Positions 11,116 through 28,339 of a DNA stretch of 64,000 bases are shown in pieces. Below the pieces are notes generated by a model. It saw only the letters and a list, made by a program, of their open reading frames with translations. It searched no databases and had not been told where the DNA came from. Numbering within the stretch: the first letter of the stretch is position 1; every line of letters begins with the position of its first letter. The position numbers were made by a program, and so were the translations under genes. The stretch comes from Tagaea sp. (GTDB taxonomy: Bacteria; Pseudomonadota; Alphaproteobacteria; CACIAM-22H2), in contig CBDIIB010000005.1 in assembly GCA_965279525.1 (NCBI GenBank), positions 1,376,001-1,440,000 on the forward strand. The letters run 5' to 3'.

Positions 11116-13236
11116 TCACTTCCCGTCGAGGACGGTGACGGCCGTCCAGCCGGGCCCCGGCGGGGAATCGCGGAGCGGAGCGACCCGCCCGGCAAGGCTT
11201 GCCGCCGCCGTGTCGCCGTCCAGCGGCGGGGCCGTGAGCCGGGCGTGCGCGGCGGCGAAATCGCCCGCCCGGTAGAGGGCGAGGGCGGCCGCGAACGCCG
11301 CCGCATCCACTTTCGTCGCGGCGTCGAGCGGTTCGTAGATCGTCACCGGCTTCTCGCGCCCCTTGACCTGGATGCAGTCGAGCTCGCGCCACCCGATTTC
11401 CGGGCCGGGTGCGGCGTCGGCCAGCAGACGCACCGATTCCGCGCACATCACGTTGGTCCCGAAATATTTGTTCGCCCCCTCGAGGCGCGAGGCGAGGTTC
11501 ACCGTGTCGCCCATCACCGTGTAGTTGAAGCGCTTCTTCGAGCCGATATTGCCGACAAGTGCGCGCCCGCTGTTGAGCCCGATGCGCGCCTTGAGCTTGT
11601 GCCCGAGGAACAAGGCGGCCGGATCGGCGTTCATCGCGGCAAGCTTCGCGTTGCACGCAAGGGCCGCCTCGACGGCACGGCGCGCATGCGCCGGATCGTC
11701 CATCGGTGCCCCGAACACCGCGACGATCGCATCGCCGATATACTTGTCGACGAAACCGCCATGCGCCTCGACGATGTCGGTCATCGCCGAGAGATACATG
11801 TTCATCACCTGCACGAGCTGCTGGGGCGTCAGGCTCTCCGACAGGCCGGTGAACCCGGCGACGTCGGAGAACATCACGGTGATCTCGCGCTCTTCCCCGC
11901 CCAATTCGGGCGGGGCCTGCGCCGTCATCAGCCGGTCGACCATCGCGGGCGCCAGATAAAGCCCGAAGCTCCGGCGCAGCAGGCGCTTGTCCTTGTCGGC
12001 GACCGCGAAGCGGTAGCCGAGCAGACCCGCACCCGCAAGGAAGGAAGCGACGAGGGCGGTCAGGAACGGCCAGACGAGGGCGTTGTCGAGGGCGACGACG
12101 CTTGCTGCCGTCCAGGCCAGCGCCAGCCCGCCGAACGCCGCGACGAACGCCGTCGCCGGCAGGGCGAGGGCCGCCGTTGCCGTCGCGGCAAGCAGGATCG
12201 TGGCCGCCAGCCCTTCGCCGGCCCGCCCGAGCTCGGCAAGGCCGCCGCCGCGCAGCAGGTTGTTGACGAACGTGGCGTGGATGAACACGCCGGGGATCGC
12301 GTCGCGGACTACGTCTTCGCGCACGATGTCGGTGCGCGCGGGAAGCGCACAGCGCGCGCCGAAGGCCGCCCCTTCCTGTCCGGTCATGAAGCGGCGCGAC
12401 GTGAGCTTGCGGTCCTCGACGTCGAGCACCGTGCCGATGAACACGACCTTGTCCTTGAAGTGCTTCGCGAAGAACGCCGCATCGCCTTTCTCCGCGCAGG
12501 CGCGCAGGTCGCCGAGCGAAAAGGCCGGGATATCGGCGCCGCCGCCGTCGAAATCGATCGGCATCGCGTTGGCAGCCGAGCCGGGCAGGCGGCGGCCGTC
12601 GAACCACACGCCGTCGGCGCGAAGTTCCGGCTCGACCTTGCGCGCGCGCGCGGCGGCTTCGAGCCCGAGCGAGGTCTGCCGGGCGCCATCCTCGAGATCG
12701 AAGAACAGCGGTGCGCGCCTGATCGCCTCGTCGGGATCGCGGAACAGGTTGGTCGAACGGATGTTCGCGTCGTGGCCAACGGCGAAGCTCTGGCCCTGGA
12801 AGGGGCGGATCGGCGAAGCGCCGTGCTGCACCTTGCCCAGGATCAGCCGTCCCTCGCGCGAGCCGGCGCGCAACACCCGCAGGAAGTCGCGGTCGTAGCC
12901 GGGCACGAAACGCTCGACCGACGTGGGGAAGATCACGTCGAACGCGACGACCGAAGCGCCGGCGTCGAGCACCGCGTTCAGCACCGGGGCCATTTCGCGT
13001 GTCCAGAAGGCCTGCGGCACGTCGGCGAAGGGCGGCGTGCGGTAGGATTCCTCGTCGATCGCCACGACGACGCTGGGCGAGGTGGCCGCATCGTGCCGCG
13101 GCCCGAAGGCGAGATGGCGCAGCGCGAATGTCAGGTCGAGAGAGATGCCGCGCAGCGTGTCGGCCAGCGGCGAGGCGACGAAAAGCGCGCCGAGGAGGAC
13201 GGCCGCGACGGCGGCCCCGGACGCGTGGCGCTTCAT
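11116..13236 (-). CDS. CHASE2-domain membrane adenylate cyclase (class III)
   Basis: N-terminal TM; CHASE2 motifs (VVVAIDE, FDVIF, FKDKVVFIG, PGVFIHA); 3 TM; cyclase motifs FSDVAGFT, DKYIGD, NYTVMGDTVNLASRLE and VKGR. Confidence 0.92.
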   Translation of the reverse strand: MKRHASGAAVAAVLLGALFVASPLADTLRGISLDLTFALRHLAFGPRHDAATSPSVVVAIDEESYRTPPFADVPQAFWTREMAPVLNAVLDAGASVVAFDVIFPTSVERFVPGYDRDFLRVLRAGSREGRLILGKVQHGASPIRPFQGQSFAVGHDANIRSTNLFRDPDEAIRRAPLFFDLEDGARQTSLGLEAAARARKVEPELRADGVWFDGRRLPGSAANAMPIDFDGGGADIPAFSLGDLRACAEKGDAAFFAKHFKDKVVFIGTVLDVEDRKLTSRRFMTGQEGAAFGARCALPARTDIVREDVVRDAIPGVFIHATFVNNLLRGGGLAELGRAGEGLAATILLAATATAALALPATAFVAAFGGLALAWTAASVVALDNALVWPFLTALVASFLAGAGLLGYRFAVADKDKRLLRRSFGLYLAPAMVDRLMTAQAPPELGGEEREITVMFSDVAGFTGLSESLTPQQLVQVMNMYLSAMTDIVEAHGGFVDKYIGDAIVAVFGAPMDDPAHARRAVEAALACNAKLAAMNADPAALFLGHKLKARIGLNSGRALVGNIGSKKRFNYTVMGDTVNLASRLEGANKYFGTNVMCAESVRLLADAAPGPEIGWRELDCIQVKGREKPVTIYEPLDAATKVDAAAFAAALALYRAGDFAAAHARLTAPPLDGDTAAASLAGRVAPLRDSPPGPGWTAVTVLDGK

Positions 13237-13238
13237 GT

Positions 13239-13895
13239 CTAGAGCCGGATGAGGCGGCTCAGCAGCGGTGCCTGTCCCGATCGTGCCTCGGGGTCGACCT
13301 TGAAGACGATGTTCCGCTCGCCGACCGACAGACGGTAGGTTCCGCCGGCGACCAGCGCGCGGTCGGCCTTGGCGAGATCGAAGAAGCTGCCGCGCGTGAG
13401 CTGCTGGGCCGGCACGTCGAAAGCCATCGGTTCGCCCGGCTGGTCGAGACGCGCGATCGACACGCGCCCGCCACCCTTGATGTCGAGCACGGGCGAAATG
13501 CCGTAGATCGTCATCTCGGGCGCGTTCGCGGCGGCACCCGGCCTGGGCGGCGCGCGGAAGACCATGACGCCGGACTTCGCCGCCTGGTCGGAGGAAAGGC
13601 GCATCTTGCCGGCATCGCACGGCATCTTCTCGCGCCGCACGGTGCCGCCGGCCACGCTCGACTGCTCGGCGCCCACGGTGACCGTCCCGCCCTTGATCGT
13701 CTCGCGCCAGCAAGACTTCAGATAGCCCAGCACCAGCTCGTCGCCGGCGCCCAGCTTCACGACGCGCCCGGCCTCGACATAGTCCATGAAGTCCACGTCG
13801 AGCTTGCCCTTGGCATCCTCGACGATGGCGACGGGGTCGGCTGCAAGTGCAGGTGCTGCGGCGAGCGAAAGGAGAAGCGCCAGAACGCGATGCAT
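13239..13895 (-). CDS. Secreted protein of unknown function (218 aa)
   Basis: Signal peptide MHRVLALLLSLAAAPALA; beta-rich; two Cys; 2 bp from the cyclase start. Confidence 0.8.
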   Translation of the reverse strand: MHRVLALLLSLAAAPALAADPVAIVEDAKGKLDVDFMDYVEAGRVVKLGAGDELVLGYLKSCWRETIKGGTVTVGAEQSSVAGGTVRREKMPCDAGKMRLSSDQAAKSGVMVFRAPPRPGAAANAPEMTIYGISPVLDIKGGGRVSIARLDQPGEPMAFDVPAQQLTRGSFFDLAKADRALVAGGTYRLSVGERNIVFKVDPEARSGQAPLLSRLIRL

Positions 13896-13917
13896 CCGGG
13901 ACCGTCTGCTGCGCTGA

Positions 13918-15336
13918 CTATTTGAACGTGACATCGGTCGACTTGCCTTGCTCTGTGGTGAAATTGACCTGCACATACTTCTCTTTTTCGGCCGCGATGA
14001 CCCTTCCGCGCATAATCGATTTCGTCTGGTCGCCGAAGCGCCCGCAGACGATTTCGATTTCGGAAAATGTGCCATCTTCGCCGATCGGCCCGCTGCCGGC
14101 GCAGTTGCCGCCGCCGCCGCGTGGCCCGCCCGTCCACGAGGCGCCTAGCCGGATGCTGCCCTGCGCGACCGTGGCAAATGCGTGCGTGCCGGAGCTGCTG
14201 ATGACGCCGAGCGCAATGTTCGCCGAATACACGCCGTTGAACTGGGTGCCGGCGCGAGCCGCCGGTACGGAAGCGACCTGCTGGGGTGGTGCCACGACCG
14301 GTGCCGGTGCCGGCGCCGCCACAGGCGCCGGGGCTGCAGCGACAGGTGCCGGTGCTGGCGCCGGTGCTGGGGCCGCACGCGCGGCGACGACCTGCTGGCG
14401 GGCGGCTTCGAGGCTTGCCACGCGCGCGCGCGCGATGCCCGCGAACATGCCGGTCGGGAACGTGTCGAGATAGGCGCGCAGCTCGGCGGGATCGCTCGAT
14501 CCCTTGACCGAATCCCAGAACATCGCTTCGCGGTCGACGGCGGGTGCTGCCGCTGCGGCAGGTGCTGTCGGCGCCACGGCGGCCGATGCGGCCGCCGGCG
14601 GCTGGAAATAGAAGTCGCCGGTCAGCGACGAGGCTTCCCAAGGGACCTGTGCGCCGTTGGACGCGCGCGCCACGCCGATGCGCACCTGCTTGAAAACGTC
14701 TTCGGCTTTCAGGCCCGGCTGCGCCAGCGCCTTCAGCAGTTCTTGCGTATAAAGCCCGTTGGAACCCTCGCCGTCGGCGGCGACTTTGCCGGGAGCGGTC
14801 GCATAGGCGATCATCGTGCCTTCGGGTGCATTGATCTGTGCGAGGCCGCCACCGACCGAGCGGAAGCGCCGCTCGAACGGATTGTTCCGGCAGGCATCGA
14901 GAATGACCATGCTGACGCGCGCGCGCGCTGCCGCCATCTGGTCGAGCACGGCGTCGATGTCGAGCGTTTCCAGCCGCACGCGCTGCTCGGACGTGATCCT
15001 GGCGTCGGTCGGGATCAGGTAGTTGCGGCCCTGCACCTGCATGCCGTGGCCGGCGAAGAAGAACAGCGCCGTGTCGCCCTCGCTCAGCTTCTCGCCGAAA
15101 TCGGCGACGACCTCGTTCATCTGCGCCTTCGTGGCGTTCTCGCGCAGGAGCACCTCGAACCCCTGCCGGCGCAGCGTGGCGGCGATCGCGCGCGCGTCGT
15201 TGGGCGGGTTCTTGAGCGGGGCCTCGGCGTAGCTGCCGTTGCCGATGACCAGCGCCACTTTCTTGCTGGCGAGGGCCGGCGTGCCGACCGCCAGAAGCGC
15301 GCTCAGGAAGGCGAGTAGGCGGATCAATGGATGCAT
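13918..15336 (-). CDS. Exported caspase-family (peptidase C14) protein
   Basis: Signal peptide; ALVIGNGSY, L.NP.NDA, FFAGHG (His) and ILDACR (Cys); FW..V....YL..FP.G.FA helical motif; Pro/Ala linker and a small C-terminal domain. Confidence 0.93.
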   Translation of the reverse strand: MHPLIRLLAFLSALLAVGTPALASKKVALVIGNGSYAEAPLKNPPNDARAIAATLRRQGFEVLLRENATKAQMNEVVADFGEKLSEGDTALFFFAGHGMQVQGRNYLIPTDARITSEQRVRLETLDIDAVLDQMAAARARVSMVILDACRNNPFERRFRSVGGGLAQINAPEGTMIAYATAPGKVAADGEGSNGLYTQELLKALAQPGLKAEDVFKQVRIGVARASNGAQVPWEASSLTGDFYFQPPAAASAAVAPTAPAAAAAPAVDREAMFWDSVKGSSDPAELRAYLDTFPTGMFAGIARARVASLEAARQQVVAARAAPAPAPAPAPVAAAPAPVAAPAPAPVVAPPQQVASVPAARAGTQFNGVYSANIALGVISSSGTHAFATVAQGSIRLGASWTGGPRGGGGNCAGSGPIGEDGTFSEIEIVCGRFGDQTKSIMRGRVIAAEKEKYVQVNFTTEQGKSTDVTFK

Positions 15337-15423
15337 CTCATGCCCCCCCGGTCGAACCCGGCAAAACCGTCACAGGCTGATACCTACGTTAGTCCCGACC
15401 GGCCCCGCCCGCAGTGATGCCGC

Positions 15424-18400
15424 TCACTCCGATACTTGCGAAACCTGCCGTGCGCCCGAGCCGCCACCGTCCCCGACGAGGGCGAACGGCGCCCAGAAGA
15501 TGGGGTGGCTGTAGGCGAAGACGGTCTGGCGGTTGGCGGGATCGACGTAACCCGGTCCGTCGATCAGGGCCGCCATCGCCTGCTGGAGGGCGGCCGCGCG
15601 CGCAAGACCCGGATCGCGCGCCTGGCGCCCGAACAGGTCGGTCGTCAGCACGCGCGCACTCGTCGTCTCGACCGGCCAGTTGGTCACCAGCAGGGCGCGG
15701 GTTCCGGCATAGAAGAACGCCCGGCCAAGGCCGGAGACGGCTTCCGCCCCCGCCCCGTCGCCCGTCGCCGTGTTGCAGGCCGACAGCACGACCCAGTCGG
15801 CATTGAGTTTAAGGCCCAGTACCTCGTCGAGCGTCAGCAGCCCGTCGCCGTCGATGTCGGCGACGTTGGGCGCCGACAGGGCGAGAGCCGGCTGCGTGAG
15901 CCCGTTGAGATCGCCCGGGATCAGCCCGTGCGTGGCGAACATCACCACCCGCCGGTTCGACAGGTCCATCGTCTTGACGTTGCGCTCGTTGGCGGCCGCC
16001 CCCAGGAACACGTCCGAGGCATCGGCGTTGAGCGCCAGCGCGATCCCCTTCACCTCGTCCGACGTGTCGGGCAGGCGCGGCAGCATGGCAAGCTCGGCAC
16101 TGTCGACGGTCGACGTCGCGGGTGCGGAACGCCGCACGAGCTTCACGCCCCTTGTCTGCAGGCCGCGCGTGGTCAGCTGGGCGACCTGCTGCGTGGCCGC
16201 TTCGACCTTCGCCTCGGCCATCTGCTCGGCGCTGAACCACGGATCGCCGAAGCCCGCGAACGCCTTGCGGTTGGCAGGTGCGGCCGGCAGGTTGCGCAGC
16301 GTGGCCAGCGAGGCGACCGACGGAAGCTGGGTGATGCCGGCCTTGCGGATCAGGAACGGCACCTTCCTGTACGCCGAGAACAGCGCTTCGCCCTCGCGCT
16401 CGGCGGCAAGCTGTGCAGGCTCGGTCACCAGCACGCCGAACGGCAGCTGGCCCAGCACGTCGTGCGGCACGACCAGCAGCGACGTGGCGTTGGCGAAGCC
16501 CGCTTCGACCGGCTTCAGCAGGTCGGCATAGAGCTTGCCCGCGAGCGCCACGTCGAAGGCCGGGATGTCGCCAAGCGTGGCGGCGTTGGGGTCAAGCGAC
16601 TTGCGCAGGCTCGCGACCGTCGCGGCCATCGCCTTCTGCCCGACGGGCACGGCCGAGAACGCGACCGCTCCCGCCTGCGGGACGGCCCACACGAAGCTCT
16701 GCTCCATGCCCACATAGGTGGCGATCAGTGCTTCGCCGGGCCGCAACGAGCGGCGGGCCTGCTCGACCGTCGCGGGGCGCGGATCGATCAGGTTCACATA
16801 ATCCGGAAAGCGCCGCTCGATCTCCTGGCGGATCGCCGCGCGTGCAGCGCGCAAGGAATCGATCTGCGTGCGCAGGACACGCACCGCCGCGTCGTCGCGC
16901 TCGGGGGCCGACAGCACGTTGGTCAGCAGCCCCTGCAGCGCGCCCACCTGCTTCTGCGTGTCCTGCTCCTGGCGCACGAACTCGGCCAGGGCCGGGTCCG
17001 ACGCCGACGCGCGCGCCGAGCTTTGCGCCAGTGCCCGCTGCACGCCCTGCCCGCGGATCGCGTCGGCAAGGCGGAACGACTCCTCTGCAGAACCCGCTCG
17101 ATTCGACGCCGAAAGCGCGCGCAGTGCCGACTCGAACACCACGCGCAGCTGGCTGTCGCGCTGCGCCGAACCGCCTTCTTCGTCGTCTGCCTGGCGTGAG
17201 GACTGCAGCAGGATCGGTGTCGCGGCGTCGAACTCGGCCAGCGCACCGGCCGTGTCGCCGAGCCGGCCTTTGGCCGCACCCAGCATGCCGCGGCTGATGG
17301 CCGTGTCCCAGTGCCGCTCGCCCAGCGTCTGCACGTTGCGCGCGACGACATTGGTCATCACGCGACGCGCTTCCTCGGCGTTGCCGCCGCGCAGCGACAC
17401 CATTCCCCAGTGCGCGTTGGAGTCGAAGGCCTGGCGCAACACGTCCGGGTTGGACGCCATGCGCTTGCGCAGGTCCTCGTAGGTCGCCGCGGCTGCCTGC
17501 CATTCGCCCTGCTGGCTCTGCGCGCGCGCGACCTGCCGGAGTGCCCGCGCGTACATGCCGGACGCCGGATCGACCTTCATCTGTTCGAGCGAGTCGAACG
17601 CGACGCGACCGAGGCGGTGGGCCTCGGCAGGGCGGCCCTGTTCGAGCAGGATGTCGCCCAGCCCGAGGACCGAACTGAGCGTTTCGGGCGCGTAGCGGCC
17701 CTGGATGGCAAGCCGGCCGAGCAGCACGGCGCGCGTTTCCACTTCGGCCTCGACGAGGCGGCCCTGGCGCGCAAGTGCGCGCGCAAGCTCGCCGCGGATG
17801 ACGTAGCCGAGATTCGTATAGGCTCTCGGCGGCTGGTTCTGCTGGCGCGTGATCGACGCCTCGTCGCGGATCAGCCGGTCGTTGCTGGAGATCGCCGCGC
17901 GCAGATGGCGTTCGGCCTCGGCGAAGCGGCCTTCCTCCATCGCGATGGTGGCCGACGAGCGCGCCACGAAAGTTTCCGCGCTCCACAGCACGAACTGCGG
18001 CAGGCGCGGGGCGTTGCGCAGTTCGGTCAGCGTCGATTCCATCCTCGGAAGCTCGACTTTCGCGGTCGCGATATCGCCGAGCTGCACGGCCGCTCCGACG
18101 AGACTCGACTGGGCCGAGATGCGCGCGCCGGGACTGGGCGCGATGGCGACGCGGCGCTGGTGCAGCGTGAAGGCCGTGCGTCCGTTGCCGATCTGCTGTT
18201 CGCTGATCGCCCACTGCTGGAGATAGCGCGCGTTGATTGCCGGCGACGCGTTGGCCGCACTGGCAAGCTCGTAGGCGCGCTTGAAATCGGCCACGCGCTG
18301 ATTGACGCGGCCGAGTTCCTCGGCGGCGATGCCGCGCTCGAACAGGAACGCGGCGAGATCGGTCCCGCGCAGGGTGGCGGGCGGCTCGGCATCGGCCTTC

Positions 18401-18618
18401 GCGACGGCGGCGGCGACGCGCGCGGGGTCGGGCTTCTGCTGGTCGAGGATCGCGGCAATGTCGGAGATCGTGCGCGGCGGCGGGCGGAAGCCCTGGCCCT
18501 GGAACTCGGCCGTGATCTGGCGGGCCTGCTGCAGGCTCACCGCCGGCTTGCCGTCCGGCTGGCAGCCCCACAGCAGAAAGAGCGCGAGCACGCATGCGGT
18601 GCTTCGGAATTCGTGCAT
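15424..18618 (-). CDS. TPR + CHAT-domain protease, predicted lipoprotein
   Basis: Lipobox-like LLWGC; TPR-like helices; FATHG (His), LSACNT (Cys), WPV and HPIFWAPF. Confidence 0.93.
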   Translation of the reverse strand: MHEFRSTACVLALFLLWGCQPDGKPAVSLQQARQITAEFQGQGFRPPPRTISDIAAILDQQKPDPARVAAAVAKADAEPPATLRGTDLAAFLFERGIAAEELGRVNQRVADFKRAYELASAANASPAINARYLQQWAISEQQIGNGRTAFTLHQRRVAIAPSPGARISAQSSLVGAAVQLGDIATAKVELPRMESTLTELRNAPRLPQFVLWSAETFVARSSATIAMEEGRFAEAERHLRAAISSNDRLIRDEASITRQQNQPPRAYTNLGYVIRGELARALARQGRLVEAEVETRAVLLGRLAIQGRYAPETLSSVLGLGDILLEQGRPAEAHRLGRVAFDSLEQMKVDPASGMYARALRQVARAQSQQGEWQAAAATYEDLRKRMASNPDVLRQAFDSNAHWGMVSLRGGNAEEARRVMTNVVARNVQTLGERHWDTAISRGMLGAAKGRLGDTAGALAEFDAATPILLQSSRQADDEEGGSAQRDSQLRVVFESALRALSASNRAGSAEESFRLADAIRGQGVQRALAQSSARASASDPALAEFVRQEQDTQKQVGALQGLLTNVLSAPERDDAAVRVLRTQIDSLRAARAAIRQEIERRFPDYVNLIDPRPATVEQARRSLRPGEALIATYVGMEQSFVWAVPQAGAVAFSAVPVGQKAMAATVASLRKSLDPNAATLGDIPAFDVALAGKLYADLLKPVEAGFANATSLLVVPHDVLGQLPFGVLVTEPAQLAAEREGEALFSAYRKVPFLIRKAGITQLPSVASLATLRNLPAAPANRKAFAGFGDPWFSAEQMAEAKVEAATQQVAQLTTRGLQTRGVKLVRRSAPATSTVDSAELAMLPRLPDTSDEVKGIALALNADASDVFLGAAANERNVKTMDLSNRRVVMFATHGLIPGDLNGLTQPALALSAPNVADIDGDGLLTLDEVLGLKLNADWVVLSACNTATGDGAGAEAVSGLGRAFFYAGTRALLVTNWPVETTSARVLTTDLFGRQARDPGLARAAALQQAMAALIDGPGYVDPANRQTVFAYSHPIFWAPFALVGDGGGSGARQVSQVSE

Positions 18619-18689
18619 CTGAAGTTGCTCCCCCCGGAGAATTCCGGACCCGATTGTAGCACCTTCCGGGGCTTGATTTTAGCACCGCC

Positions 18690-18824
18690 AGATGTTAGAT
18701 TAATATTCCGATCATAGGTATGTGATCGGAATAGGGTGCGCGGGTCGCATCGAAACGTCTGGAGGTTACAACCTTTCTATATCAATGGGTTAAATAGGTT
18801 ACGGTAACCTGTTGTCGCCCATTA
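18690..18824. promoter_or_regulatory. AT-rich control region upstream of the CHAT operon, with inverted repeats and an IHF consensus site
   Basis: 11-8-11 inverted repeat at 18704-18733; TATCAAtgggTTA (WATCAANNNNTTR) at 18780-18792; AGGTTAC-G-GTAACCT at 18796-18810. Confidence 0.6.
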
Positions 18825-25688: not shown

Positions 25689-25692
<4 letters not shown>

Positions 25693-26393
25693 TTGACCCC
25701 GGCGGCGGCCATCGCGGCGTCGATCGTCGCGCGGTCGTACGTGCCCGCGATGTCGGCACGCGTGGCAAGGAACGGGCGGAAGATCGCAAAGCGCTCCTTG
25801 CTGACGGCATGGAGCCGGCGCAGCTCGACGAGCGGGAATTCGTGGTCGTCCACGCGCATGTCGAGATCGGGATACTCGTCGCCCGAATGCACGCGGATGG
25901 CGGCGGACTGGCGCCCGCGCTTGTCGCCGCCCGCGGCATCGCCCGCGTCGAGCGCGTCGAGGAAGCGCTCGGCCAACGGCTTGCCGCGCGAAGCGGCGAA
26001 CGCCTTCGCGGTCGCCTCGATCACCTGCTTGCCCGCCAGCATGTTGCCGGCGACCGAGAATTCGTCGAACACGAGATGGCCCGCCCAGTCCACGCAGCCC
26101 TTGCCGGTGTGTGCGGCAAACCGGCCGGCGGCATCCATCAGGTGGACCTGGCGCACGTCGCGCCCGGCATCGCGCGCGAGCAGGGCCGCGAGCGTTTCGG
26201 CCGCCGGCATGCCGCGTGCCAGGAGGTCGATCCCGTCGATGCCGTGATAGGGGTTGATCAGGGCCTGCGTGGCGACCGCACCGGCCCCCGGACGCACGTA
26301 GGGACAAAGTGCGCCGACCGCGAAGAAGCGCGTGGCGACGGCGATGCCGATTTCGCCGGTTGCGGGATCGCGGGCGACGACGGACCAGGTCAT
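25689..26393 (-). CDS. DUF1028 family Ntn-hydrolase-like protein
   Basis: [31 protein letters not shown] and RVDDH. Confidence 0.85.
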
Positions 26394-26529
26394 GGCGGCC
26401 TCGTTGGTTCCACCGGGAACTTAATTCGCCGGGCCGACAAGTAAAGCCCGTGCGGTCGCATTATGCAACGCCGGGACCATCGACGCTCGCCCGGACCAAG
26501 TCCGGCCCGACCAATTTAGACAATGGGCG

Positions 26530-27606
26530 TCAGGCGAGCGTGAAGGATTCGTGCACCGCACTTTTGACGCCGCCGCCCATCACCGGCCCGCCGCCGGCCA
26601 CATAGATGGCATCACCGATCGTGACCGCGCCCATCCCGTGGCGCGGCGTCAGCATCGGCGCGTAGGCCTGCCACTTGTCGGCAACCGGATCGTAGGCTTC
26701 GTTCTGCGCGAATACGCGGTTGGAACCTTCACCGCCCATGCAGAAGATCTGACCGCGATAGAGCGTGGCGCCGTGGCCAGAACGCGCCGTCGGCAATGGG
26801 TTGCGCATGCGCCAGCGGTCTTCCTTGGCGTCGTACGTGTGGTGCAGGTTCGAGTTCGTATAGAACGTGGTCACGCGCCCGCCGATCACGTGGATGAACC
26901 CGTTCATCGCGACGATGCCGACGTGGTCGCGCGCGGTGGGCAGCGGGGCGGCCGTGCGCCAGCGGTCGTCCTTCGGGTCGTAGACAAGGTGGCGGTCGAT
27001 CGACACGCGCGCCTCGGCCGTATCGCCCCAGGCGCCGCCGATCGCATGGATGCGGCCTTCGAACGCCACGCAGCCCATGGCGCCGGCAGCCTGCGGCATC
27101 GTGGCGATGCGGCTCCACCGCTCGCCGTCGGCACCCCAGACGAAACAATCGGCGTGCGGCCGGCGGTTCTGGTCGAGGAAGCCGCCCAGCGCATAGAGCC
27201 GCCCGTCGAGAACGGTGACGCCCACATGGTTGGCGCCCAGCGGCAGGTCGGCGGCCTGCATCCAGGCATCGGCAGCCGGGTCGTAGATGTGGTGATACGG
27301 CTTGTCGACGCGCTGTTCGGCATAGCCGCCGACAAGATGCATGCGTCCGGCACGCTCGGCCGCCCACGCCATCTCGGTGCGGGGCAGGGGCAGCGGCGCG
27401 CGGGCCGACCACTTGCCCTGGTTCGCGGCCTTGGGTGCGATCGAGTCGTACACGCGCTGTTCCTGCGCGATCGGCGGGATCTCGATGCGGCCGGGCTGGT
27501 TCAGCCGTTCGAACATCGGGCCGTGATGGGCGTGCTGGGCCGCCGCGGGGGCGGCGAACGCCGCCAGCCCGCCGGCGACGAAGGCACGCCGCGTGGTCGT
27601 CGTCAT
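26530..27606 (-). CDS. Kelch-repeat beta-propeller with Tat signal
   Basis: TRRAFV signal; about six GG..Y.P..D.W..LP..R repeats. Confidence 0.88.
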   Translation of the reverse strand: MTTTTRRAFVAGGLAAFAAPAAAQHAHHGPMFERLNQPGRIEIPPIAQEQRVYDSIAPKAANQGKWSARAPLPLPRTEMAWAAERAGRMHLVGGYAEQRVDKPYHHIYDPAADAWMQAADLPLGANHVGVTVLDGRLYALGGFLDQNRRPHADCFVWGADGERWSRIATMPQAAGAMGCVAFEGRIHAIGGAWGDTAEARVSIDRHLVYDPKDDRWRTAAPLPTARDHVGIVAMNGFIHVIGGRVTTFYTNSNLHHTYDAKEDRWRMRNPLPTARSGHGATLYRGQIFCMGGEGSNRVFAQNEAYDPVADKWQAYAPMLTPRHGMGAVTIGDAIYVAGGGPVMGGGVKSAVHESFTLA

Positions 27607-27619
27607 CGTTGCTCTCTCC

Positions 27620-28339
27620 TCAGGAAACTTCGCGCGACAGCTTGTTGATCATGGCATAGGCGAACGTATCGAAGCCAAGCACCGATAGCAGGAACGCGCC
27701 TGTCCCGCCGATCACGTTGGCACGGTACCATTCGTCCAGTCCGCCGGGCGGGTGGGTGTGCATCGGGTTCCACGGGCTGGGCGTTTCGGTCAGGATGGCT
27801 AGGCCGTTGATCGTGATGCCGGCTTCGACCGCGATGTCGCGCGCGGTTCCCGCGAGCGTGCCGCTGGTATTGGTGCCATCGCCCGACACGTCGATCGTGC
27901 GCCGCCGTGCCTCGTACGGGCAGCGGCGCAGCTCTTCCATCGAGAACATGATCGCCTCGCCGATGGCCGTCGAACCGGCGAAGGGGCGCGGCGGGGCGAG
28001 CAGGCGGGCGGCGAAATCCTCGGCGCTGTCCTGGCCGTCGATCACCGTCCAGTCGACGAGCGTGCGCTGGGCGCCCGGGCCCGACCATTCGTTATAGGTA
28101 AGCGCAAGCCGCTTGGCGGGCCCGCCAGTCATTGCGCGCACGACGCGCGGATCGGCGATTGCCGTGGCATATCCTTGGCGCTGGAGCAGGAAGCGGTTGT
28201 TGTCGATGCTGCGCGAGACGTCGGCGGCAAGGACGAGCTGGAGGTCGAACTTTTCTGCCGCCCGCACCGGCAGGACAGCCGCGGCAACGCCGGCACCGAG
28301 GCCGGCCAGAAATGTGCGCCGTTTCGAAGGTCGTGGCAT
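27620..28339 (-). CDS. DUF1194 (vWA-like) protein with Tat signal
   Basis: KRRTFL signal; LVLAADVSRS (MIDAS DxSxS), IDVSGDG and VIGG.GAF. Confidence 0.85.
   Translation of the reverse strand: MPRPSKRRTFLAGLGAGVAAAVLPVRAAEKFDLQLVLAADVSRSIDNNRFLLQRQGYATAIADPRVVRAMTGGPAKRLALTYNEWSGPGAQRTLVDWTVIDGQDSAEDFAARLLAPPRPFAGSTAIGEAIMFSMEELRRCPYEARRRTIDVSGDGTNTSGTLAGTARDIAVEAGITINGLAILTETPSPWNPMHTHPPGGLDEWYRANVIGGTGAFLLSVLGFDTFAYAMINKLSREVS

Follow-up and report, generated by a model that had tools for sequence, protein, structure and literature searches.

A small secreted protein, a CHASE2 adenylate cyclase and a TPR-CHAT protease as a predicted envelope signalling module in Tagaea sp.

CHASE2 cyclases with exported partners are already known, and the same is true for periplasmic TPR-CHAT proteins in signalling. 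In the literature searched, we found no description of CHASE2 combined with CHAT (subscription journals and supplements may hold more). Here we analyze a four-gene cluster in which the two occur together. It lies in a 64,000-nt stretch of DNA from Tagaea sp. (GCA_965279525.1, contig CBDIIB010000005.1, 1,376,001-1,440,000 of the forward strand; hereafter the window, in whose positions coordinates are given) and consists of four minus-strand genes arranged head to tail, with intergenic gaps of 87, 22 and 2 nt. They encode P0004 (TPR-CHAT lipoprotein), P0003 (secreted C14 caspase-like protease), P0002 (small secreted protein) and P0001 (CHASE2 receptor adenylate cyclase) (Table 1). Our results point, with moderate confidence, to an envelope signalling module ending in cyclic AMP (cAMP) synthesis, in which the small protein and the CHASE2 cyclase would form the core and the TPR-CHAT protein would be a third component acting by regulated proteolysis. 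Subscription journals and supplements aside, neither the P0002 partner family nor the recurring TPR-CHAT/small protein/CHASE2-cyclase module was found described.

CHASE2 input has been described as unknown or just indirectly defined (PMC5192318, PMC13001267). The Sinorhizobium meliloti proteins CyaK, CyaD1 and CyaD2 are, like P0001, inner-membrane CHASE2 class III cyclases, and they depend for their signal input on an exported protein that has its own gene (PMC7529298, PMC13001267). CyaK and the envelope protein NsrA, whose β-barrel comprises residues 600-1200, are both required to sense a protein signal (PMC7529298). CyaD1 devoid of CHASE2 produces cAMP constitutively, which marks CHASE2 as an inhibitory domain, and a FecR-domain protein is encoded next to cyaD1 (PMC5498481). 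On S. meliloti pSymB, the gene for a 1197-aa protein with FecR (66-160) and TPR (417-531) domains ends at the cyaK start codon (L089, 2391-5984). In view of its size, its position and the β-barrel span given for NsrA (PMC7529298), this protein is probably NsrA. In that case, a CHASE2 cyclase would have NsrA as its FecR-domain partner. The Tagaea cluster differs in that the putative partner is a 218-aa soluble protein without detectable FecR kinship; it encodes no β-barrel protein, P0002 being modelled as soluble β-sandwiches. A ShlB-type barrel accompanies relatives of the module in Azospirillum and at a sister locus of the same genome. Furthermore, no protease is reported for the S. meliloti pathway in the available text. 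As no TPR-CHAT match was found on Sinorhizobium plasmids at E ≤ 1e-10, the S. meliloti TPR protein SMb20495 was not identified as a CHAT protein.

Two further systems have the gene for a secreted β-rich protein immediately 5' of a CHASE2 sensor gene: the Burkholderia operons of a response regulator, a LysM-FecR protein and a CHASE2 kinase (PMC5192318), and the Magnetospirillum gene pair for secreted MtxA and a CHASE2 cyclase (PMC4439547). The P0002 gene, co-oriented with the P0001 gene and separated from it by 2 nt, occupies the same position as these FecR-type partners. A CHAT protease is reported with none of these systems in the available text. In Trichodesmium, a metacaspase-CHASE2 fusion is described, with its protease domain predicted to be cytoplasmic (PMC3501461). 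On the protease side, DdvA is described as the one anti-sigma factor for which a periplasmic TPR-CHAT has been reported; signal-induced CHAT proteolysis was proposed for it but is unproven (PMC11506125). P0004 resembles DdvA in its fold and in its His-Cys dyad. However, DdvA is fused to its own transmembrane helix and a cytoplasmic anti-sigma domain and controls a sigma factor of the ECF (extracytoplasmic function) class (PMC11506125), whereas P0004 is a free lipoprotein, the output of which would be a separate CHASE2 cyclase, predicted to be reached via a small adaptor protein. The same architecture, in which a caspase-fold CHAT domain with a His/Cys dyad comes after a TPR superhelix, is found in the Craspase subunit Csx29 and in separase. 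Both are allosterically switched, and each cuts one specific partner protein (PMC11506125); unlike P0004, they are cytoplasmic or nuclear and controlled by RNA or securin.

The small protein and its CHASE2 cyclase

A scan of the genome collection revealed 218 loci with a P0002 relative. The locus counts given below refer to the best 80 of these 218, searched by tblastn with the domains of the window. Among the 78 loci with room downstream (at least 700 nt), 74 have the CHASE2 cyclase gene directly downstream of the small-protein gene, the exceptions being L045, L064, L065 and L076. The closest loci of the survey are Tagaea-labelled, and the adjacency spans Rhodospirillales-, Reyranella-, Xanthobacteraceae- and Bradyrhizobium-labelled genomes. 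Otherwise, families of transporters and metabolic enzymes recur as neighbours, reflecting local synteny. One could imagine that the four genes share no function and are adjacent merely by descent in one lineage; indeed, the flanking nitrilase, PfkB kinase, SDR and cupin genes are likewise syntenic in close relatives. Nevertheless, the taxonomic span of the small protein-cyclase adjacency, the persistence of TPR-CHAT linkage through four arrangements and the parallel operon in the same genome (see below) make such a coincidence extremely unlikely.

At two of the exceptional loci (L064, 10001-14658; L065, 4847-6830), a P0002 paralogue is directly followed by a P0003-like caspase gene, which replaces the CHASE2 cyclase. 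The genome with L064 carries a standard small protein-cyclase pair as well (L077). In a plasmid search, P0002 relatives were found solely on four Azospirillum plasmids and on none of the Sinorhizobium plasmids. On an Azospirillum lipoferum 4B plasmid (L081, 8881-13503), a small-protein homologue, a CHASE2 cyclase and a ShlB/FhaC-type transporter are encoded in a row; these genes carry only the annotations hypothetical protein, cyclase and secretion protein.

We also sampled 300 other alphaproteobacterial genomes evenly and found the small protein in 19, a P0004-like TPR-CHAT protein (E ≤ 1e-30) in 38, CHASE2 in 133 and a P0003-like caspase (E ≤ 1e-20) in 33. All 19 genomes with the small protein possess CHASE2.

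P0002 starts with a signal peptide (ending in ALA, followed by ADP; all export signals of the cluster were read by eye) and contains two β-sandwich domains (residues ~20-95 and 128-218). In the AF2 (AlphaFold2) model (mean confidence score pLDDT 77.4), the two domains are connected by a low-confidence linker (108-121). In the family, C62 and C93 are invariant, and the linker is conserved (Q104...G109..VFR114..P117), with R114 found in at least 90% of the sequences. The family is large: 891 of the 8000 candidates scored in a word-index search were homologous at E ≤ 0.001, and an exhaustive profile search retrieved 1206 cluster representatives at E ≤ 1e-3 (402 at E ≤ 1e-30). The 120 homologues listed are 214-251 aa long and 'hypothetical' where named, and none of them has a Pfam domain. 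Pfam searches at E ≤ 10 with 22 family members gave nothing meaningful (no FecR, DUF7354 or MtxA_IG-like match), and the same was true for a profile search of the PDB with the family; Foldseek with the P0002 model against the PDB retrieved nothing at E ≤ 0.001. With VIA-align, the N-terminal domain could be superimposed on a 76-residue 'cell surface anchoring domain' (Z 7.0) and the C-terminal one on fibronectin type III (FN3)/immunoglobulin (Ig)-like domains (Z 5-5.8). As the fold matches only a generic Ig/FN3 type, no function can be read from it.

Two known families were considered for P0002 and rejected. In hhalign, the probability of kinship with FecR partners was 0.2% for a single sequence and 5% profile versus profile, and PF04773 matched none of the 22 members. 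For MtxA/DUF7354, there was no PF24045 or PF22433 match, and the ESM Atlas similarity to the MtxA cluster (0.76) was below lead level.

P0001 contains a first transmembrane helix (TM1, ~4-28), a CHASE2 domain (~29-345), three further transmembrane helices (~341-407) and a cyclase domain (450-632). CHASE2 was recognized with 93.5 bits (PF05226; cut-off 26.3) between TM1 and the three-helix cluster, and the hydrophobic stretches 4-28 and 341-407 in the hydropathy plot flank it; this arrangement fits a periplasmic CHASE2 and a cytoplasmic cyclase domain. PDB matches to P0001 are restricted to residues 420-642. Class IIIb cyclases possess two metal-binding Asp, a transition-state Asn and Arg, a substrate-specifying Lys and a Thr replacing Asp at the second specificity position. 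In P0001, D458, K498, D502, T573, N580 and R584 are conserved in 71-72 of 72 homologues. K498 (DKY) aligns with a Glu of 2w01, which we take to be the guanylyl cyclase Cya2, and with a Lys of 6fht, presumably its engineered adenylate-cyclase form, whereas T573 (NYT) aligns with Gly in both. The residue set is that of a class IIIb adenylate cyclase, for which cAMP synthesis from ATP is predicted.

Many details of the cluster had been noted in an original prediction made for this DNA, and they were borne out: four co-oriented genes with the above gaps, export or membrane localization of all four products (a lipobox in P0004, signal peptides in P0003 and P0002, and CHASE2 bracketed by hydrophobic stretches, as far as sequence inspection can tell), Lys and Thr at the substrate-specifying positions of the cyclase, and intact dyads in both proteases, described below.

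Binding of the small protein to CHASE2, for which complex prediction had been proposed as a check, was supported by the models. We combined residues 26-346 of P0001 (25-row alignment) with residues 20-218 of P0002 (22-row alignment) in three runs, along with three controls. The interface score ipSAE was 0.66, 0.60 and 0.62 (median 0.62), and 0.00 for the best control. For comparison, 116 of 157 solved complexes attain this score, as do 2 of 215 mismatched pairs; the benchmark is a rough one, since own alignments were used. The runs agreed in at least 79% of the contacts, and the partner pLDDT was at least 79. Recall of a solved complex is unlikely, because neither the CHASE2 part nor P0002 has a solved sequence relative. 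On the P0002 side, the predicted interface comprises the N-terminal domain and the conserved linker (91-119), which is disordered in the model of P0002 alone and yet conserved. The predicted contacts comprise residues 24-37, 57-62 and 91-119 of P0002 and residues 116-120, 147-155 and 179-182 of CHASE2. Predicted contact with CHASE2 would explain the conservation of the linker without cleavage. Taken together, the small protein is highly likely to be a partner of the CHASE2 cyclase.

The TPR-CHAT protease and the caspase

P0004 has a lipobox (LWGC, residues 16-19), a TPR superhelix (~50-610) and a CHAT domain (691-1050). The CHAT domain (169 bits, in addition to matches to TPR families) contains the dyad H897 (ATHG) and C948 (SAC); the His is conserved in 29 of 29 homologues and the Cys in 28 of 29 (with a gap in the remaining one). 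P0004 is therefore a predicted TPR-CHAT protease. Close relatives carry L[AWTI]GC and distant ones ordinary signal peptides, so that an export signal is present wherever the N-terminus is readable. In TPR-CHAT homologues, the export signal is followed by the near-invariant stretch PPPRTISDI(T/A)AILDQQKPDP (P0004 ~46-65; ~18424-18483, minus strand, in the window). Sequence search of P0004 against solved chains gave none at E ≤ 0.001. The AF2 model (pLDDT 77.3, global score pTM 0.68) matched human separase (1.6e-11), the periplasmic TPR-CHAT of DdvA (4e-10) and the TPR-CHAT protein of Craspase, Csx29 (1.4e-9) in Foldseek.

The link of P0004-like genes to the core is apparent at both levels. Among the 39 fully flanked loci (at least 5 kb upstream and 7 kb downstream), 20 possess such a gene, in 19 of them not more than 4.5 kb away. 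Its placement varies (same strand upstream or downstream, convergent downstream, divergent upstream), and it directly abuts the small-protein gene in L010, L011, L013, L015, L016 and L024. In the genome sample, TPR-CHAT is present in 15 of 19 genomes with the small protein versus 23 of 281 without it (Fisher p 6e-12, not corrected for phylogeny), and CHASE2 is present in 36 of 38 genomes with TPR-CHAT versus 97 of 262 without. Moreover, all five tested genomes with a TPR-CHAT-free small-protein locus have a match elsewhere (four near full length, one a contig-end fragment). The expectation of the original prediction that homologues of the small protein co-occur with CHAT and CHASE2 genes thus held, with TPR-CHAT as the looser associate: it is missing from many loci and, where unlinked, stands apart from CHASE2 genes.

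A parallel case exists in the source genome itself (4.35 Mb, 97% complete). It encodes three CHASE2 cyclases, each preceded by a gene for a secreted protein, and two true CHAT proteins, each in a CHASE2-cyclase operon. In the sister operon (Table 1), the gene for a 275-aa protein binding cyclic nucleotides (cNMP) stops 4 nt before the second TPR-CHAT lipoprotein gene. This operon is caspase-free, and its small secreted protein has no Pfam match. The latter represents a second family (100 homologues at E ≤ 1e-8, a Pfam domain in none), found in 24 of 300 genomes; TPR-CHAT is present in 19 of these 24 versus 19 of the 276 others. In four genomes (G298, G280, G200, G008), the second small-protein gene directly abuts a TPR-CHAT match. 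The two small-protein families are possibly related, judging from hhalign (probability 4% with a single sequence; 37%, E 3.5e-4 over 187 columns, nearly full length, with deeper profiles). At the third CHASE2 locus, genes for a FecR-domain and a TPR protein precede the cyclase gene, which resembles the FecR+TPR protein gene in front of S. meliloti cyaK. All in all, TPR-CHAT probably acts in the same pathway as the small protein and the cyclase.

The second protease of the cluster, P0003, consists of a signal peptide (ending in ALA, followed by SKK), a caspase domain (25-243; PF00656, 152 bits), an Ala/Pro-rich linker and a C-terminal part; its C-terminal half gave no Pfam match. The dyad of H97 (AGHG) and C149 (DAC) in the p20-type domain, as expected for peptidase family C14, is kept in 27 of 29 homologues. 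In an alignment with the paracaspase MALT1, these residues fall on its motifs YYAGHG and LDMCR, which we take to contain its catalytic residues. MALT1 is Arg-specific.

The original prediction was a protease cascade formed by the four genes: the TPR part would sense an envelope or contact cue, a protease would cleave the 218-aa protein, and the product would switch the cyclase, as an extracytoplasmic form of caspase signalling or immunity. In its full form, TPR-CHAT would activate the caspase, or vice versa, before the cleavage. The co-orientation of the genes, their short gaps and the two intact dyads speak for it. Moreover, P0003-like caspases are more frequent where the small protein is present (11 of 19 genomes versus 22 of 281; p 2e-7), a caspase gene stands right after the small-protein paralogue in L064 and L065, and the resemblance of P0003 to MALT1 could be connected with the highly conserved R114 in the linker of the small protein. 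However, a P0003-like caspase was found in only 14 of the 39 fully flanked loci (both proteases in 6 of 39), that is, it is lacking in 25, and it is located between the CHAT and small-protein genes solely in close Tagaea-like relatives. The sister operon does without it. Proximity is less telling for caspase genes, which are multi-copy, with up to nine matches per genome; furthermore, there are only generic defence matches, and the surroundings of the locus are not those of a defence island. A two-protease cascade as a conserved unit therefore did not hold up, and we consider it improbable. What stood of the four-gene unit is the small protein-cyclase core with TPR-CHAT as a frequent companion, the caspase being outside the conserved core. 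Note that an operon on a Pseudosulfitobacter plasmid (L107, 2041-10287) encodes an annotated caspase family protein, a serine protease, two hypothetical proteins and a CHAT domain protein, and looks unrelated.

A proposed mechanism and what weighs against it

To see what usually adjoins CHASE2, we inspected the best-scoring CHASE2 gene of 40 other genomes (L110-L149) with up to two genes on each side; 127 of the 157 neighbouring open reading frames (ORFs) were scanned (leaving out 24 shorter than 125 aa and 6 large ones). FecR-domain proteins are neighbours in 7 of the 40 loci, often with a TPR/SlipAM-type protein. Parts of type I secretion systems (HlyD, ABC exporter, outer-membrane efflux protein) adjoin 12 of the 40 CHASE2 genes; some of these loci have a neighbouring ORF of ~1900-2100 aa, which is among the ORFs left unscanned.

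In the mechanism that we propose, the core would be the 218-aa periplasmic protein docked on CHASE2 via its N-terminal domain and conserved linker. The small protein would serve as a regulatory subunit or co-receptor of the cyclase and would fill the genomic and functional slot that FecR-domain proteins hold beside other CHASE2 sensors. TPR-CHAT, after its TPR part has read a cue, would cut the small protein or an incoming protein signal. This cut would alter the inhibition that CHASE2 exerts on the cyclase and thereby change the cAMP level in one direction or the other. The secreted C14 caspase would be an added protease in a minority of loci. A more specific version, which we put forward tentatively and consider rather unlikely as it stands, is that TPR-CHAT cuts the linker of the CHASE2-bound small protein near VFR114-APP, thereby releasing or imposing CHASE2 inhibition and causing a cAMP pulse.

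Several observations weigh against this mechanism, especially against its proteolytic part. Apart from co-occurrence, nothing indicates that the small protein is cleaved, and the statistics on co-occurrence take no account of phylogenetic relatedness. TPR-CHAT is missing from 19 of the 39 fully flanked loci, and at E ≤ 1e-30 a P0004-like match is lacking in 4 of the 19 genomes that carry the small protein. Several of the positive TPR-CHAT genome matches span only the CHAT domain. At six unlinked TPR-CHAT sites, the adjoining ~8 kb to the left and right contain none of the genes for CHASE2, the small protein, the caspase or ShlB. CHAT, ShlB and caspase genes are present in 0 of the 40 other CHASE2 loci (127 ORFs scanned); this rules out a general CHASE2-CHAT link, so that the CHAT link must be specific to the cyclase subfamilies found here. 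The score of the complex expresses the confidence of the model and is not a measurement. Finally, the targets of cAMP-Clr in S. meliloti include the FecR-domain neighbour SMc02177 as well as a large TPR protein, both dispensable for perception (PMC5498481), and neighbours of this type may therefore be outputs rather than inputs.

The last point leads to a rival explanation that involves no proteolysis in sensing: the small protein would be a ligand-binding or scaffold subunit, and the proteases would act on other envelope substrates or would be co-transcribed, cAMP-regulated outputs. The core pairing and the binding prediction require no protease, and the S. meliloti neighbours just mentioned are a precedent. 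Candidate substrates would be incoming foreign proteins and a giant two-partner-secretion (TPS) exoprotein, TpsA, encoded nearby (Table 1). The latter, with 15 DUF5649 repeat matches, is the product of the sole TPS-domain gene of the genome, which ends 3 kb from the cluster, and the genome's only ShlB/FhaC-type transporter (TpsB) is encoded ~330 kb from TpsA, beside the sister TPR-CHAT/CHASE2 operon. The Azospirillum plasmid row of small protein, CHASE2 cyclase and ShlB-type transporter would fit as well. Yet TpsA relatives next to the module are confined to close Tagaea-like loci (L002-L006, L010, L012, L016), and no TpsB gene was seen across the 80 surveyed loci; the proximity of TpsA, kept only in close relatives, is therefore treated as possibly neutral synteny. 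In addition, TPR-CHAT tracks two small-protein families and directly abuts their genes, which is more specific than co-regulation needs. We regard a co-receptor without proteolysis as a serious but less probable possibility than the protease-linked module proposed above.

The idea of immunity, which was also part of the original prediction, can be phrased as a regulator of defence against phages or other invaders: TPR-CHAT would sense a phage cue, as proposed for DdvA, and the cyclase would make a Pycsar-like alarm nucleotide. The fold of P0004 does resemble the periplasmic TPR-CHAT of DdvA (PMC11506125), and the cyclase domain matches the PycC models of PADLOC (best 4.5e-30). However, these matches span only the shared class III cyclase domain, and the Lys/Thr specificity residues are as in ATP-using enzymes. 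Neither a Pycsar effector nor an anti-sigma domain or another defence gene is present nearby, and the small protein and TPR-CHAT have no PADLOC match. PADLOC gave generic cyclase and caspase matches only, and the neighbours of the cluster are metabolic and transport genes, so that the immunity idea was not sustained and a role in defence appears very unlikely. Membership in Pycsar was rejected on the same residues, the generic nature of the cyclase matches and the lack of a gene for a cNMP-binding effector adjoining the cluster.

Surroundings of the cluster and implications for CHASE2 signalling

Table 1. Features of the Tagaea sp. cluster and of related loci in the same genome. Positions refer to the window unless a contig of the source genome (G000:C5) is named.
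Feature	Position	Strand	Evidence or content
P0004, TPR-CHAT lipoprotein, 1064 aa	15424..18618	-	Pfam CHAT 1.6e-49, TPR_12 2.5e-15
P0003, secreted C14 caspase-like protease, 472 aa	13918..15336	-	Pfam Peptidase_C14 2.8e-44
P0002, small secreted protein, 218 aa	13239..13895	-	Pfam, NCBIfam: none
P0001, CHASE2 receptor adenylate cyclase, 706 aa	11116..13236	-	Pfam CHASE2 2.1e-26, Guanylate_cyc 2e-25
Probable promoter/operator region of the four-gene unit (~200 nt intergenic, 5' of the P0004 gene)	18619..18824	-	inferred from sequence
Sister operon (locus 2)	G000:C5:1044655-1053494 (L086)		divergent ShlB/FhaC-type outer-membrane transporter, then cNMP-binding protein, TPR-CHAT, small protein, CHASE2 cyclase
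Third CHASE2 locus	G000:C5:1715963-1722053 (L087)		TPR protein, FecR-domain protein, CHASE2 cyclase, convergent Crp-type regulator
Giant two-partner-secretion exoprotein (TpsA), open frame of 3927 aa	1-8061, start upstream at G000:C5:1372290 (L088 16290-20000)	+	N-terminal TPS domain 5.9e-34

NCBIfam added no specific family for the four cluster proteins. A scan for terminators revealed no site above shuffle expectation inside the cluster (the four terminator-like sites do not exceed the shuffle counts). A consensus scan of the cluster gave 0 promoter-like sites, and no sigma-70-like hexamer pair was detected upstream of the P0004 gene. The AT-richer intergenic region 5' of the TPR-CHAT gene contains a perfect 7-1-7 inverted repeat, AGGTTAC-C-GTAACCT (18796-18810), which may be an operator, and the P0004 ATG is preceded by a Shine-Dalgarno-like run, GGGGGGAG. 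Elsewhere in the window (25689-28339, minus strand), three adjacent genes encode a DUF1028, a Kelch-repeat and a DUF1194 protein.

CHASE2 is among the commonest extracytoplasmic sensor domains, being present in 134 of 301 sampled alphaproteobacterial genomes. The predicted docking of a 218-aa soluble protein from a large unannotated family on CHASE2 offers a minimal pair for reconstitution. The two modules with different small proteins in one genome provide a natural comparison for specificity. Furthermore, free periplasmic TPR-CHAT proteases become linked to cAMP signalling; the sole periplasmic TPR-CHAT that we found described, in the available text, is the fused DdvA (PMC11506125). If the protease-gated reading is true, the cluster would encode a protease-gated second-messenger receptor, in which extracytoplasmic cleavage by a caspase-fold enzyme is converted directly into a cAMP pulse. 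For the first time, a CHASE2 domain would then have a defined input mechanism, and a periplasmic CHAT protease a demonstrated substrate.

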